NCBI GenBank assembly: GCA_964551945.1
Contig: CAZKFH010000002.1
Coordinates: 31,785 to 95,784 of the forward strand
DNA length: 64,000 bases
Origin: an uncultured Actinomycetes bacterium
GTDB lineage: Bacteria; Actinomycetota; UBA4738; CALAEC01
Reading direction: 5' to 3'
Of the stretch, positions 22,397 to 42,856 are shown one piece after another (position 1 is the stretch's first letter; each line of letters begins with the position of its first letter). Under the pieces are notes generated by a model. The model searched no databases. It was given only the letters and a program-made list of their open reading frames with translations, and was not told the DNA's origin. Made by a program: the position numbers and the translations under genes.

Positions 22397-22755
22397 CAGC
22401 GCATCAGCCCCGCATCCGTGAACAGTTGTTGAATCTCCTCGATCAGCTCCGGAGCCTTCGAGCGACCGAACGGTCCTCGGGCAACCAGAACGACATCGTG
22501 CCCGTCCTGGACCCGTGGCCAAAGCGCTCGAGATGCTTCCCGAAGCAGGCGCCGAGCGCGATTGCGGGCGACGGCACCTCCGACACGTTTCCCGGTCACC
22601 CAGGCCGCCCGTGAAGGGCCCGGCCGGGGCGCGACGTACACTACCACCCGCTCGGATCTATGGGGCCTGCCCTCGCGGAGGGTTCGTCGGATCGCCGGAG
22701 GATCGACTCGCTCAGGAGGCGAGCCTGACCCGGCCCTTCTTACGGCGCCGGCCAA
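22396..22755 (-). CDS. rnpA: RNase P protein component RnpA (start uncertain; the frame overlaps rpmH)
   Basis: Has the RnpA-like basic region [20 protein letters not shown]. There is no in-frame ATG or GTG between the rpmH stop at 22712 and 22755. Confidence 0.6.
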
Positions 22756-22846
22756 GGATCGTGCGGCCGGCCCGGGTGCGCATCCTCGAACGGAAGCCGT
22801 GCGTCTTCTTCCGCCGTCGCGTGCTGGGTTGGTAGGTCCTCTTCAT
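22712..22846 (-). CDS. rpmH: 50S ribosomal protein L34
   Basis: Translates as [44 protein letters not shown], 44 aa. It is absent from the ORF track because it is under 60 aa. Confidence 0.9.
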
Positions 22847-23049
22847 GGAGGCAATTAAAGTAACAAAAGGACGCGCCTTCCGCGTTTCCCCAGGTCAGCA
22901 CGTGTATCACCGCGCGGCGACGATTTGGGTGCTGAGAAGGCCCGGGCTATACTCGCCCCTGTACTTCCCTCCGGGACCGCCTCGAGGCGGTCCCGATTTG
23001 TCTTCCCCAGCAGTTTGCACACCTGTGGAAAAGAGGTGTGGACAAGGAT
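22847..23049. promoter_or_regulatory. rpmH–dnaA divergent intergenic region with DnaA boxes and an AT-rich patch
   Basis: AT-rich GGCAATTAAAGTAACAAAAGG sits at about 22849..22873. A TATACT -10-like hexamer lies near 22948. CCTGTGGAAA is the reverse complement of the TTTCCACAGG motif. TGTGGACAA at 23037..23045 is the reverse complement of TTGTCCACA, the actinobacterial DnaA-box consensus, and overlaps the dnaA start. Confidence 0.6.
22972..23005 (+). terminator. Perfect 10-bp stem hairpin (CGGGACCGCC-TCGA-GGCGGTCCCG) followed by the T-rich ATTTGTCTT; terminator- or attenuator-like element ~40 nt upstream of dnaA
   Basis: The inverted repeat was read directly from the sequence. No plus-strand gene lies upstream, since rpmH is on the minus strand. 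Confidence 0.4.
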
Positions 23050-24411
23050 ATGACCGGGGAAGCTGATGCAATCTGGACACAGGCCGCCGAGCGGATCAAG
23101 CAGGAGGTCCCTCCCGGCACGTTCAACCTGTGGTTCGCACACGTGCGAGCCGCGCAGGTCGACGAGCGCAGCCTGGAGCTGACCGCTCCGAGTGAGTACG
23201 TCCGGACCTGGCTGTCGCGCAACCACCTGGATCTGATCACGAAGCTGGTCGGCCAGGTGAGCGGGCGTCCGCTCGAGGTGCGGCTCGAGGCCGACGAGAC
23301 GGAGCCTGCCCCCGATCCCTCCGTTCTGCTCGAGCCGGCGCCCAGCTCCCCGGAGCGCCCGTCCGACGCGGCGCCCTCCTCGTATCCATCGCGCTACTCG
23401 TTCGACAACTTCGTGCTCGGGCCCTCGAACCGGTTCGCGCACGCCGCAGCGATGGCGGTCGCCGAGGCCGCCCCCGCGCAGGCCTACAACCCGCTGTTCA
23501 TCTACGGGGGAGTGGGGCTCGGCAAGACGCACCTCATGTACGCGATCGCGAACCACATGCGCCGGATGGCGCCCGGGGTGCAGGCCAAGTACGTGACCTC
23601 CGAGACGTTCGTCACCGAGTTCATCAAGTCGATCCGTGACGGGCAGGGGTATCTCTTCCAACGTAGGTATCGCGACGTGGACGTGCTCCTCGTGGACGAC
23701 ATCCAGTTCCTCGCGAGGGCTGAGGAGACCCAGACCGAGTTCTTCCACACGTTCAACACGCTTCACGGGGGAGAGCGACAGATCGTGATCGCGTCGGACC
23801 GGCCGCCCCAGGAGCTGTCGGGCCTGGCCGAGCGATTGCGCAACCGTTTCCGGTGGGGCTTGATCGTCGACGTCCAGCCCCCGAACCTCGAGACACGCAT
23901 CGCGATCCTGCAGGCGAAGCTCCTTCGAGACAACCTGCGCGTGCCCAACGGTGTTGTGAACTTCATCGCGCAGCGCTTCGACGCGAACATCCGTGAGCTC
24001 GAAGGTGCGCTGCTGCGCGTGGTCGCGTTCGCATCGCTCTCGCGCCAACCGATGGATCTGGAGCTGGCGGAACGGGCGCTCGAGGACCTCCTACCACAGG
24101 GCGGTCAGCAGGTTCCCGCGGAAACGATCATGACCGAGACCGCGGACTACTTCGGCCTCCGGCGGGAGGACCTCGTCTCGAAGAGCCGGTCGCGGCCACT
24201 TACAACCGCGCGGCACGTCGCGATGTATCTCATGCGAGAGCTCACTGGTCTGTCCCTCATCAAGATCGGCGAGCTTTTCGAGCGCGATCACTCGACGGCA
24301 CTTCACGGCATAAAGCGCATCGAGAACCTCATGCCGAACCGCGACACCGTCTACCGACAGGTGCAGGAGATCACCAAGCGGATCAACACCAGAGCGCGGG
24401 GGACGAGGTGA
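23038..24411 (+). CDS. dnaA: Chromosomal replication initiator DnaA
   Basis: Has the AAA+ Walker A GGVGLGKTHL and the C-terminal DnaA-box-binding domain (TARHVAMYLMRELTGLSLIKIGELF). An alternative start is the ATG at 23050. Confidence 0.95.
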   Translation: MDKDMTGEADAIWTQAAERIKQEVPPGTFNLWFAHVRAAQVDERSLELTAPSEYVRTWLSRNHLDLITKLVGQVSGRPLEVRLEADETEPAPDPSVLLEPAPSSPERPSDAAPSSYPSRYSFDNFVLGPSNRFAHAAAMAVAEAAPAQAYNPLFIYGGVGLGKTHLMYAIANHMRRMAPGVQAKYVTSETFVTEFIKSIRDGQGYLFQRRYRDVDVLLVDDIQFLARAEETQTEFFHTFNTLHGGERQIVIASDRPPQELSGLAERLRNRFRWGLIVDVQPPNLETRIAILQAKLLRDNLRVPNGVVNFIAQRFDANIRELEGALLRVVAFASLSRQPMDLELAERALEDLLPQGGQQVPAETIMTETADYFGLRREDLVSKSRSRPLTTARHVAMYLMRELTGLSLIKIGELFERDHSTALHGIKRIENLMPNRDTVYRQVQEITKRINTRARGTR

Positions 24412-24613
24412 GGAAAACCTGTGGAGGAAACGACGGCCATGTGTCCCCAGTGGTTTGGGGTGTGGAGAACTCACTCACTGTCCACACGCTACGCACATGT
24501 CAGACCCACGGCCTACGCTCGGTGTTTGCGGGGTTATCCCGGTTTCCACAGGCACTACTACTAGTACTGGTCTTGAACTAGATGAAGAGAAGAATAGAAG
24601 GGGAGGTGGAGAA
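24412..24613. promoter_or_regulatory. oriC core, dnaA–dnaN intergenic: a DnaA-box cluster plus an AT-rich unwinding element with a trinucleotide (DnaA-trio-like) repeat
   Basis: DnaA-box-like 9-mers are CCTGTGGAG, TGTGGAGAA, CTGTCCACA (24478..24486), TTATCCCGG and TTTCCACAGG. An AT-rich stretch spans 24553..24600. The repeat CAC-TAC-TAC-TAG-TAC lies immediately 3' of a box. This is the mycobacterial-type oriC location. Confidence 0.7.
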
Positions 24614-25717
24614 GTGAAGTTCAGGTGCGATCGAGACCTTCTTTCGGAGGCTCTGCAGACGGTGCAACGTGGTGTCTCCACTCGGCCGGGGATCCCCGCC
24701 CTGACCGGTGTGCTCATGACGATCGATGCGGAGGGGCTTGCCCTGACGACGACCGACCTCGAGGTTACGACCGAGGTCCGGATCCCCGTCGAGGCGACCG
24801 AGGATGGCAACACGCTCGTGCCAGCCCGCCTCATCGCGGACATGGTCAAGTCTCTGCCGGCCGACGCCGTGGACTTCGAGAGCGATGGATCACGCGCGAA
24901 GGTCGTCTGTCGCAGCTTCGAGGGCACACTTCGGTGCCTCGCTGCGGAAGACTTCCCCGCCGTCCGTGATGTGGAGGGCATCAGCGTCAAGGTCCAGGCA
25001 CAGGCGTTCTCCGAGGGCGTGGGACAGGTTGCTCGCGCTGCCTCACGGGACGAAGCGCGCCCCGTGCTCACCGGTGTGCTGATGGAGGCCAACCGCGAGG
25101 GATTGATCATCGTCGCGACGGACTCCTACCGCCTCGCGGTCAAGGAGCTCAGCGCGAGCGCGGGGGGAGAAGCCCGTGCCCTGGTCCCGGAGCGAGCCCT
25201 GACGGAGGCAGGACGTGCCGCAGCTGGACAGGAGAAGGGTGACGTCGAGCTTGTCATCGGCGAGGCGCAGGTGGTGTTTCGTGTCGGGACGCTTCGGTTG
25301 ACATCCAGGCTGATCGACGGCGAGTTCCCGAACTACCGTCAACTGCTGCCGGAGCCGGCCGAGAACAAGCTCTCCGCGGGTCGCCAGGAGCTCCTGGAGG
25401 CCGTGCGGCGTGTGGGGCTGTTGGCACGGGAATCGTCACCGGTTCGCTTCGAGCTGAACGCTCTCGGGGTACGCCTCACGTCGGCATCACCGGACCTCGG
25501 TGAGGCTGTGGAGGCGGTTGAGGCGAAGTACGAGGGCGAGGAGATCACGGCGGCCTTCAACCCCGGCTACCTCGGCGACGGCCTGTCGGTAGCCGTGGCG
25601 GATCGAGTGACTCTCGAGCTGCGGGACGGCCTGAAGCCGGCACTGGTTCGTGGGGAAGGTGACGACTCCTTCACGTATCTCGTGATGCCGGTGCGTCTTC
25701 CCGCGCCGGTCGGCTAG
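24614..25717 (+). CDS. dnaN: DNA polymerase III beta sliding clamp
   Basis: The GTG at 24614 is preceded by a GGGAGGTGGAG ribosome-binding site. The N-terminus VKFRCDRDLLSEALQTVQRGVS matches DnaN. The track's longer ORF 24455..25717 spans oriC. Confidence 0.9.
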   Translation: MKFRCDRDLLSEALQTVQRGVSTRPGIPALTGVLMTIDAEGLALTTTDLEVTTEVRIPVEATEDGNTLVPARLIADMVKSLPADAVDFESDGSRAKVVCRSFEGTLRCLAAEDFPAVRDVEGISVKVQAQAFSEGVGQVARAASRDEARPVLTGVLMEANREGLIIVATDSYRLAVKELSASAGGEARALVPERALTEAGRAAAGQEKGDVELVIGEAQVVFRVGTLRLTSRLIDGEFPNYRQLLPEPAENKLSAGRQELLEAVRRVGLLARESSPVRFELNALGVRLTSASPDLGEAVEAVEAKYEGEEITAAFNPGYLGDGLSVAVADRVTLELRDGLKPALVRGEGDDSFTYLVMPVRLPAPVG

Positions 25718-25734
25718 GAGCACCACTGCGACTG

Positions 25735-26805
25735 CTGTGGCTGGAGGTTCGCGACTTCCGCAACCACGTCGAGACTCGGCTGGAGCTCGAGGATGGAGTC
25801 GTGGCCCTGGTGGGTCCGAACGCGCAAGGGAAGACGAACCTCCTCGAAGCGGCCCACTACCTGCTCACATTGCACTCTCCTCGAGTTGCCGCAGACCTGC
25901 CCCTCGTGCGCCAAGGGGCCGGCAGCGCGTTCCTCCGGGGCGAGGTGGAGACCACGACGGGCAAGGTCCTCGTGGAGGTCGAGGTCCGCGCGTCCGGTGC
26001 GAACAGGATCCAGGTCAACCGTAGTGGTGTGCGTCGTAAGCGGGATCTCCGTCAGCGCGTCCGCTCGGTGATGTTCATCCCCGAGGACCTCGATGTCATC
26101 CAGGGCCAGCCCGACGACCGACGACGATTCATGGATGAGGCTACGCAGGCGATGTGGCCGCGGACGGAGGAGCCTCGTGTCGCGTACGACAAGGCGTTGC
26201 GCCAGCGGAACCGTTTGTTGAAGGAGAACGAGAGTGCGACCGCGCCCCCAGATCTCGACGCGTGGGACGCGGAGCTCGCGGTTCATGGCGCCGCGGTGAC
26301 TGCGGCTCGCCGGCGCGCGCTGGCAGCGGTCGGTCCCAGGGCCGGCGACGAGTTCGAGCGTGTCTCCGGGGAGCGTTTGCGCGTCGACTACCGTCCCTCC
26401 GTCCAGGGGGAGGATGACGTCGAGGCCTCGATGCTTCGGCAGCTCAAAGATCGTCGAGACGACGAGCTGGTGCGACGGACTACCCTCGTCGGACCCCACC
26501 GTGACGAGCTCGAGATCGCTGTCGGGGAGATGATCGCGCGCCGCTTCGCCTCCCACGGAGAGTCGTGGGCTGGTGCGCTCTGCCTGCGGCTCGGTGTGTG
26601 GAGCGGTGTGTCTGTCGAGCTCGACGAGCCGCCCGTGCTGATCCTTGACGATCCGTTCTCGGGACTCGACCCTGAGCGCCGCAAGCGGCTCGCCGATGGT
26701 TTCTCCGAGCGTCGTCAGGTGTTGATCTCGGTGCCGGACGAGGCGCAGGTGCCGGCCGCCGCGACAGTGTGGGAGGTTCGAGAGGGCCATGCCACGCGGC
26801 GCTGA
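25735..26805 (+). CDS. recF: DNA replication/repair protein RecF (the N-terminal start codon is non-canonical or unresolved)
   Basis: Walker A is GPNAQGKTN. The ABC-ATPase signature and Walker B are LILDDPFSGLD. Upstream in frame is LWLEVRDFRNH, the typical RecF N-terminus, but no ATG or GTG precedes it. The first ATG is at 25801. Confidence 0.85.
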   Translation: MWLEVRDFRNHVETRLELEDGVVALVGPNAQGKTNLLEAAHYLLTLHSPRVAADLPLVRQGAGSAFLRGEVETTTGKVLVEVEVRASGANRIQVNRSGVRRKRDLRQRVRSVMFIPEDLDVIQGQPDDRRRFMDEATQAMWPRTEEPRVAYDKALRQRNRLLKENESATAPPDLDAWDAELAVHGAAVTAARRRALAAVGPRAGDEFERVSGERLRVDYRPSVQGEDDVEASMLRQLKDRRDDELVRRTTLVGPHRDELEIAVGEMIARRFASHGESWAGALCLRLGVWSGVSVELDEPPVLILDDPFSGLDPERRKRLADGFSERRQVLISVPDEAQVPAAATVWEVREGHATRR

Positions 26806-27127
26806 CGAGCCTTCCGGGATCGGCGCCGTGATCAAGCAGATACTCGGCACGCCTCGCCTCCGACAGGGCCTGGCGCTCGGCCGCCTGTCGCATGCATGGA
26901 GTGACGTGGTGGGTGAGAAGCTGGCCGCGCAGACGGAGCCGGTGTCCCTCGACGGCGCCGGATTGGTGGTCGGAGCGTCGAGCCCGGCATGGGGCGCGCA
27001 GGTCCGTTTCCTGGCCGAAGACATCCGCCAGAGGGCCTCCGAAGCCCTCGATGGCCTGCCCGTCGGCCCGGTCAGGGTTGTCGTCCGCAACGACGCGCAA
27101 AACCGCAGGTCAAAGGGTGTTTTTTGA
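26789..27127 (+). CDS. DUF721 family protein (DciA-like, the Rv0004 position)
   Basis: Length is 112 aa. It sits between recF and gyrB exactly as Rv0004 does. The pattern LGRLSHAWSDVVGEKLAAQTEPVSLDGAGLVVGASSPAWGAQVRFL matches DUF721. Confidence 0.6.
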   Translation: MPRGADEPSGIGAVIKQILGTPRLRQGLALGRLSHAWSDVVGEKLAAQTEPVSLDGAGLVVGASSPAWGAQVRFLAEDIRQRASEALDGLPVGPVRVVVRNDAQNRRSKGVF

Positions 27128-42564: not shown

Positions 42565-42806
42565 CCGTCGCGGAGCTCCTCGGCCTTCTCCTTGAGCTTG
42601 CGGAAGTCCTTGCGGGGACGGCCCCCGGGGGTGAGAGAGTCGGTCTTCGAGAATCCCCAGCCGGAGAAGCGGATCCCCACGCCACCCCAGGTGCGCTTCA
42701 GCTCGCCGCCACACTCGGGGCAGGGGCCCGGCGGCCCGGACCCCATCGGCTGCATCTCCTCGACCTCGTGGCCACAGGCCCGGCAGCGGTAGGCGTAGAT
42801 CGGCAC
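42561..42806 (-). CDS. FmdB-family zinc-ribbon regulatory protein
   Basis: The N-terminus MPIYAYRCRACGHEVE...CPECGG is the FmdB CxxC-x-CxxC pattern. Confidence 0.6.
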   Translation of the reverse strand: MPIYAYRCRACGHEVEEMQPMGSGPPGPCPECGGELKRTWGGVGIRFSGWGFSKTDSLTPGGRPRKDFRKLKEKAEELRDG

Positions 42807-42811
42807 CCTAG

Positions 42812-42830
42812 TTATCCACAGTGTGGAAAT
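42812..42830. promoter_or_regulatory. Head-to-head DnaA-box palindrome TTATCCACA-g-TGTGGAAAT in a local AT-rich islet (about 42808..42860)
   Basis: It contains a perfect E. coli-consensus DnaA box. The partner site is inverted with 7 of 9 matches. The core CCACA-G-TGTGG is palindromic. It lies immediately upstream of the fmdB start and downstream of crgA. Confidence 0.4.
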
Positions 42831-42856
42831 GCATGGGGATAATTACGAGCCTGTGA

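Follow-up and report, generated by a model that had tools for sequence, protein, structure and literature searches.

The basal unwinding system (BUS) of the Bacillus subtilis oriC region incC lies between dnaA and dnaN and consists of DnaA-box#6 and DnaA-box#7, the sequence GGCC, six DnaA-trios and an AT-rich 27-mer. The strand opposite the trios reads 5'-CTACTATTACTTCTACTA-3'. A study of the Helicobacter pylori origin described a GC-rich sequence of 4-5 bp after the DUE-proximal box, which is GGCC in B. subtilis, and equated 3'-GAT-5' on the lower strand with 5'-CTA-3' on the upper strand. The published rule for a BUS asks for a DnaA box carrying no more than 2 mismatches, which a second box (up to 4 mismatches, gap 0-3 bp) may accompany; a spacer no longer than 16 bp (mode 13), with a GC-rich stretch of about 4 bp in it; and three or more trios of the form 3'-NAN-5', with the consensus 3'-GAT-5'. 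In cryo-EM work on the BUS with B. subtilis DnaA (8BTG), the DnaA oligomer was seen to capture the 3'-GA-5' dinucleotide of every trio; the trio bases are contacted by Asn187, Ile190, Ile193, Arg202 and Glu228, and the authors pointed out that the trio-contacting residues are not universally conserved. The predicted BUS of Streptomyces coelicolor has been given as AATAGGTGC CATAGGTGT CCGG GATGATGATGAC (Pelliciari et al. 2021, supplementary tables; originally Richardson et al. 2016), and BUS-like modules are also predicted in mycobacteria in the published BUS table.

The DNA analysed here is a stretch of 64 kb, referred to as the window, from an uncultured soil lineage of Actinomycetota, whose closest relative among public genomes is a MAG sharing 87% DnaA identity. 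The genes rsmG, jag, yidC, rnpA and rpmH (rpmH start at 22846) are located on the minus strand to the left of dnaA, and dnaA, dnaN, recF, dciA, gyrB and gyrA form a run on the plus strand. The identities of dnaA and dnaN were assigned by NCBIfam equivalogs, and that of dciA by Pfam, as follows.

23050..24411, plus strand: dnaA, replication initiator of 453 aa (TIGR00362 DnaA, E=7e-149)
24600..25717, plus strand: dnaN, with the RBS GGGGAGG (24600-24606) and the coding sequence (GTG at 24614, end at 25717; TIGR00663, E=1e-90)
26789..27127, plus strand: dciA (PF05258 DciA, E=8e-18)

The dciA gene sits between recF and gyrB, as in mycobacteria, and its product is likely a helicase operator acting after unwinding. 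Among all 60-mers of the window, the AT content was highest (62%) in the segment 27110-27169, 3' of dciA and 5' of gyrB. The dnaA-dnaN intergenic region (24412-24613, 202 bp) had a GC content of 54%, compared with approximately 67% for the 64-kb window. The cumulative G-C minimum, calculated for the 64-kb window, was located at 24355, 57 bp from this region, with mean skew values within the window of -0.020 (left of rpmH) and +0.023 (right of dnaN). A rough map of long ORFs by strand, intended to locate a switch in gene orientation, proved unreliable at this high GC content and was set aside.

For comparison, 80 related loci with DnaA identities of 57-87% were recovered, and the 75 species-level relatives in which both dnaA and dnaN could be delimited were retained. 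Their intergenic regions were 187-259 bp long (median 205). Two of the loci, L029 and L065, have been deposited as 'Thermoplasmata archaeon' and 'Candidatus Velamenicoccus archaeovorus', respectively. In the aligned origin, L029 was identical to the actinobacterial locus L030 over the last 110 nt of the intergenic region, and the DnaA/DnaN/RpmH match statistics of these two loci were also identical. The archaeal names on the L029 and L065 contigs are most likely the result of mis-binning.

The search for DnaA boxes with at most one mismatch to TTNTCCACA gave 26 matches in the 64-kb window against 16.2 in shuffled sequences. Six box-like 9-mers were present within the 205 bp of 24409-24613, where approximately 0.05 would be expected (Poisson P ~3e-11), and an AT-rich segment, a putative unwinding element, adjoined them. 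Other matches with at most one mismatch were located just upstream of dnaA (two) and in a cluster at 42812-42842 (three). The elements identified in and at the edge of the intergenic region were the following.

24409-24417, minus strand: box-like 9-mer TTTTCCTCA
24420..24428, minus strand: distal DnaA box TCCTCCACA (top strand TGTGGAGGA), adjoining the dnaA stop codon
24461..24469, minus strand: DnaA box TTCTCCACA (top strand TGTGGAGAA), an exact match to TTNTCCACA
24478..24486, plus strand: DnaA box CTGTCCACA, with one mismatch to TTGTCCACA
24534..24542, plus strand: TTATCCCGG, the weaker, upstream box of a tandem pair, with 3 mismatches to TTATCCACA
24542..24550, plus strand: proximal DnaA box GTTTCCACA, read in the 5'-TTATCCACA-3' sense towards the trios
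24551..24554, no strand assigned: GC-rich 4-bp spacer GGCA (consensus of the relatives, G-S-C-C)
24555..24575, minus strand: DnaA-trios, top strand CTA CTA CTA GTA CTG GTC TTG
24555..24599, no strand assigned: predicted AT-rich unwinding region composed of the trios and a purine-rich tract, extending to the dnaN RBS (64% AT)

The sequence statements of the initial annotation of this DNA, made without database searches, were all correct, including the boxes CTGTCCACA, TGTGGAGAA and GTTTCCACA named there. A box in reverse orientation, like that next to the dnaA stop codon, recurred in the relatives at -122 to -135 relative to the proximal box and appeared in the MAFFT consensus as the block CTGTGGAnA. 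The position of the box at 24461-24469 was weakly conserved, with TGTGCATAA at the same place in the locus L001, and a forward box at approximately -65 bp from the proximal box, the counterpart of CTGTCCACA in the window, was present in 16 relatives. The proximal box, with 2 mismatches to either TTATCCACA or TTGTCCACA, corresponded to the conserved block TTTCCACAG in the MAFFT alignment, in which the C's at 24547 and 24549 were invariant in 37 sequences; its conservation in 68 anchored loci was 97% at T3, 100% at C5 and C7, and 93% at A8. The upstream box of the pair, TTATCCCGG, is preceded by GG and is offset by 8 bp, so that the two boxes overlap by one base. The relatives carried TTnTCCAC(A/G) at -8 or -9 from the proximal box. 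The cluster as such was well above chance. The boxes conserved in this lineage resemble TT(T/A)TCCACA and are not specifically of the type TTGTCCACA that had been taken as the consensus.

The tandem pair and the sequence that follows it agreed with the published BUS rule in each component. The proximal box at 24542-24550 (+) has 2 mismatches and is oriented towards the trios, and the second box at 24534-24542 has 3 mismatches at an offset of 8 bp. This second box is weak in the window; an 8-bp offset is also seen in the Rubrobacter entry of the published BUS table. The spacer contains GGCA, and 12 nt separate the upstream box from the first trio. On the strand opposite the 5'-TTATCCACA-3' box reading, the bottom strand reads 3'-GAT GAT GAT CAT GAC CAG AAC-5', that is, seven consecutive NAN triplets of which the first three are perfect GAT. 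The combination CCACA-N4-CTACTACTA occurred once in the window against an expectation of 0.04, and a BUS template scored 18.5 out of 21 at 24542 (+), when the next best score on both strands of the window (128 kb) was 14. The repeat CAC-TAC-TAC-TAG-TAC, from which a DnaA-trio-like element had been proposed in the initial annotation, is indeed present at 24553-24567, with a register that is one to two bases off. As 3'-GAT-5' on the lower strand, the canonical trio, corresponds to 5'-CTA-3' on the upper strand, the reading as TAC/TAG trinucleotides was shifted and has to be replaced by CTA. The resemblance to the Bacillus element itself was borne out, since the module of box, spacer and trios matches the published BUS definition and the sequences of B. 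subtilis and S. coelicolor.

The AT-rich segment of 48 bp noticed after the boxes was also verified. The AT content of 24552-24599 was 62.5%, approximately 5 sd above the window mean of 32.8% (sd 5.9), which made it the joint most AT-rich 48-mer of the window, and the 30-mer at 24571-24600 tied as the most AT-rich 30-mer. The GTG of dnaN at 24614 and its RBS follow directly, as had been described. The dnaN start with the pattern GGAGGTG-N5-7-GTGAAG was aligned in all relatives. A mirror-image BUS read from the dnaN side, TTCTCCACC|TCCC|CTT CTA TTC TTC at 24613-24589 (-), gave the second-best template score in the window, 14; it overlaps the RBS and was not conserved as such in the relatives.

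The conservation of the module was evaluated by several approaches. In a model-free 7-mer count, CTACTAC was the most shared 7-mer, found in 51 of the 75 intergenic regions but in only 0.6% of 5,618 control segments (118-fold), followed by TCCACAG, CCTACTA and TACGCTG. When the regions were right-justified at the dnaN start, the order [TTnTCCAC][nTTTCC(A/C)CA][GSCC][CTA CTA CTA CTG] was observed in nearly all loci, and these blocks reappeared in the MAFFT alignment of 37 regions, where both the proximal box and the first trio contained invariant columns. CTACTAC was found at a fixed distance from the co-oriented box pair in the relatives, whereas the flanking sequence diverged. An anchored profile of 68 loci gave 82-97% conservation for C, T and A in the first two trios and 91-97% for the period-3 C (G on the bottom strand) through four trios. 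Since the motif itself is rewarded by the anchor, this profile is in part circular. The conclusions on conservation were therefore taken from the three motif-independent analyses, namely the 7-mer count, the start-codon right-justified alignment and the MAFFT alignment. A middle base other than A (CGA, CCA or CGG on the top strand) was found in the third trio of about half of the relatives, so that the strict rule of at least three uninterrupted NAN triplets held in only 36 of 68. The distance from the start of the trios to the dnaN start codon downstream was 47-83 bp (median 56), and all relatives showed AT enrichment in the tract from the trios to the RBS, with a mean AT content of 54% versus 32% for the whole loci. 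The conservation of the trio positions in the anchored profile fits the capture of the 3'-GA-5' dinucleotide of each trio by a DnaA oligomer, as seen by cryo-EM.

The DnaA protein encoded in the window is full-length, contains the Walker A motif GVGLGKTH, and aligned end to end with the B. subtilis DnaA of 8BTG (E=7e-122). Three of the trio-contacting residues are kept, as Ile192, Ile195 and Glu230 correspond to Ile190, Ile193 and Glu228 of B. subtilis, and two are changed, with Thr189 in place of Asn187 and Gln204 in place of Arg202.

With respect to B. subtilis, the locus shares the location between dnaA and dnaN, two co-oriented boxes, a 4-bp GC-rich spacer (GGCA here, GGCC there), CTA repeats on the top strand (CTACTACTAGTACTG here, CTACTATTACTTCTACTA there), an AT-rich tract leading into the dnaN RBS, and a DnaA protein that can be aligned over the full length. 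It differs in that the weaker box of the pair is the upstream one, that DnaA has Thr and Gln in place of Asn187 and Arg202 of the B. subtilis protein, and that the partner for helicase loading is likely DciA instead of DnaD/DnaB/DnaI. As the genome has a GC content of approximately 67%, the predicted unwinding tract is only about 62% AT and about 45 bp long. The predicted BUS of S. coelicolor, a member of the same phylum whose origin is also between dnaA and dnaN, reads TTATCCACG GTATCCACA GGCC CTACTACTACTG on the top strand and is almost identical to TTATCC-CG GTTTCCACA GGCA CTACTACTAGTACTG in the window. The oriC of S. coelicolor is about 1 kb long with about 19 boxes, in contrast to the 202 bp and approximately six box-like sites here, which also house a probable dnaN promoter and the RBS. 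Mycobacterium tuberculosis and M. smegmatis have the same gene order dnaA-dnaN-recF-dciA-gyrB-gyrA and an origin in the dnaA-dnaN gap with boxes of the type TTGTCCACA; the mycobacterial oriC is longer, with more boxes, MtrA boxes (GTCACAgcg repeats) and IciA binding. The H. pylori origin shows the same succession of box, GC-rich spacer, 5'-CTA-3' trios and AT-rich DUE, with box clusters on both sides of dnaA.

These results strongly suggested that the dnaA-dnaN intergenic region acts as the chromosomal origin or, at a minimum, as the unwinding half of it, and is built as a canonical BUS, and we regard this as highly probable from the sequence comparisons described above. The placement of oriC between dnaA and dnaN in the initial annotation is thus supported by the gene order, the box cluster, the AT-rich stretch and a module conserved in position and orientation across 75 relatives. 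Several points count against the assignment: the AT-rich tract is short (about 45 bp) with an AT content of only about 62%; the upstream tandem box is weak, having 3 mismatches at an offset of 8 bp; of the five trio-contacting residues of B. subtilis, two differ (Thr189 and Gln204); and the strict trio rule holds in just 36 of 68 relatives. In addition, because a promoter is likely present upstream, the BUS element is probably also transcribed.

By analogy, DnaA-ATP would bind both at the scattered boxes (24420-24486) and at the tandem pair of co-oriented boxes (24534-24550), and an oligomer would extend from the tandem pair across GGCA onto the bottom-strand trios (24555-24575). The oligomer would then stretch the trio strand and capture its bases, leading to the melting of the adjacent AT-rich tract of about 45 bp (to 24599). 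The replicative helicase would subsequently be loaded, presumably with DciA, encoded three genes downstream. We infer DnaA binding, trio engagement and unwinding at this site, as well as the role of DciA, from the work on B. subtilis and H. pylori.

A further group of boxes was found in front of dnaA.

23013..23045, no strand assigned: three-box array 5' of dnaA, GTTTGCACA (+), TTTTCCACA (-) and TTGTCCACA (-)

The top strand of this array reads GTTTGCACA cc TGTGGAAAA gagg TGTGGACAA, and the array overlaps the dnaA RBS and ends 4 nt before the dnaA ATG. It raised the possibility of a bipartite origin, in which the array would be a required second sub-region looping to the dnaA-dnaN module, with unwinding still at 24555-24599. 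This would be a variant of the BUS-origin explanation and not an exclusive alternative, and we consider it possible but doubtful. The form (G)TTTCCACA nn TGTGGAAAG nnnn TGTGGATAA recurred at identical spacing in almost all 45 relatives examined, and these fixed box-to-box offsets of 11 and 13 nt, together with the documented action of distal boxes through loops in B. subtilis, speak for such a role. An arrangement of this kind would be comparable to incA/B-incC of B. subtilis or oriC1-oriC2 of H. pylori. On the other hand, the position abutting the start codon and RBS of dnaA is the classic one for dnaA autoregulation, and the array has no adjacent trios, with a BUS template score of 14. In H. 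pylori the interaction of oriC1 and oriC2 was shown experimentally, whereas the upstream cluster here may be only a dnaA operator. To our knowledge, the characterised actinobacterial origins (Mycobacterium and Streptomyces) are confined to the dnaA-dnaN gap. A function of the array as an operator for dnaA autoregulation and one as a second origin sub-region explain it equally well. A BUS-like reading of the array itself was discarded, as the template scan found no trios there.

Two other elements were noticed during the inspection of the window. Between rpmH and dnaA, at 22972-22995 (+), there is a perfect 10-bp GC-rich hairpin CGGGACCGCC-TCGA-GGCGGTCCCG followed by ATTTGTCTT. It looks like a terminator, yet no plus-strand gene ends there, and the segment GGCGGCCCCGATTT…CTTCCCCAG recurs in the relatives; the hairpin may be a leader or attenuator element of dnaA. 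At 42812-42842, three DnaA-box-like 9-mers, TTATCCACA (+), ATTTCCACA (-) and TTATCCCCA (-), are packed in 31 AT-rich bp without trios. This cluster is located 5 nt upstream of a small minus-strand gene (GTG at 42806) for a Zn_ribbon_8 (FmdB-type) protein and may either be a promoter under DnaA control or serve to titrate DnaA.

The intergenic region contained one more conserved element, identified in the MAFFT alignment of 37 sequences.

24499..24519, plus strand: conserved motif GTC (24499-24501) … TACGCT (24514-24519)

In this alignment (A1), the positions G88, T89 and C90 and T103, A104, C107 and T108 were invariant, and TACGCTG was enriched 490-fold in the intergenic regions of the relatives. 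TAnnCT (TACGCT) fits the -10 pattern of actinobacterial promoters, TANNNT, and probably represents the -10 element of a promoter for dnaN. A strict sigma-70 promoter scan of 22600-24800 gave no matches, so the promoter idea derives solely from the invariant TAnnCT motif. If the promoter is real, transcription would start approximately 10 nt upstream of the tandem boxes and proceed through the unwinding site into dnaN. GTCAGACCC also matches the mycobacterial MtrA half-site GTCACAGCG at 6 of 9 positions, a resemblance that serves only as a lead and was the only one to MtrA sites that was noticed. That the region is a minimal actinobacterial origin of about 200 bp with a conserved promoter embedded between the distal boxes and the BUS and reading through the BUS into dnaN, or that GTC is the site of an origin-binding regulator such as an MtrA-like protein, appears unlikely as a specific proposal. 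Were the promoter reading true, transcription of the clamp gene would be mechanically coupled to the opening of the origin, either through transcription-assisted melting or through mutual exclusion between RNA polymerase and the DnaA oligomer.

The same motif can be used for an explanation without an origin, in which the region would serve dnaN regulation only, with the boxes as promoter operators, the AT-rich part as the 5' leader and RBS, and the origin elsewhere. DnaA is a known transcription factor for replication genes, the invariant -10-like TAnnCT is 22 bp upstream of the proximal box, and in the relatives a box-like TCCACA occupies the would-be -35 position. Such regulation leaves unexplained the phased CTA repeat at a fixed 4 bp from the co-oriented pair, which is the defining feature of a BUS. 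Moreover, the local skew minimum falls at the intergenic region, and nowhere else in the window do boxes, trios and AT-rich DNA occur together, the cluster at 42812-42842 being without trios. We judged this explanation very improbable.

The chance that the CTA repeat acts as RNA or peptide, through a dnaN leader that is structured or bound by a protein or through a small upstream frame, is slight to the point of being negligible: the repeat is probably inside the dnaN transcript and the nine closest genomes have an ATG frame of 10-11 codons ending at a TGA that overlaps the dnaN GTG, but RNAalifold predicted 0 pairs for the 37-sequence alignment, the leader fold of the window was no better than those of shuffled sequences (z = +0.85), and the repeat is in different frames relative to the TGA among the relatives (TTT, YYY or LLL), leaving no conserved peptide. 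An Rfam scan of the whole window detected two tRNAs only, neither of them in the intergenic region. The corresponding frame of the window, at 24582-24617, has 11 codons from the ATG (MKRRIEGEVEK) and ends at a TGA overlapping the dnaN GTG (GTGA). It is probably not a gene, since no peptide is conserved and open frames are common in high-GC DNA.

The preferred assignment of the dnaA-dnaN intergenic region as a BUS-type origin extends a type of origin already known from Bacillus, and predicted for Streptomyces, to a further lineage that is uncultured, which is unsurprising. The approximately 70 natural variants of one BUS indicated that constraint is strongest at the bottom-strand G and A of the first two trios, in agreement with the dinucleotide-capture model, and the current understanding is unchanged. 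The locus adds a further data point for the BUS as an ancestral element conserved in high-GC bacteria. For the uncultured soil Actinomycetota, it offers an exact predicted unwinding site, which would help in the orientation of MAGs and in growth-rate estimates based on peak-to-trough ratios.
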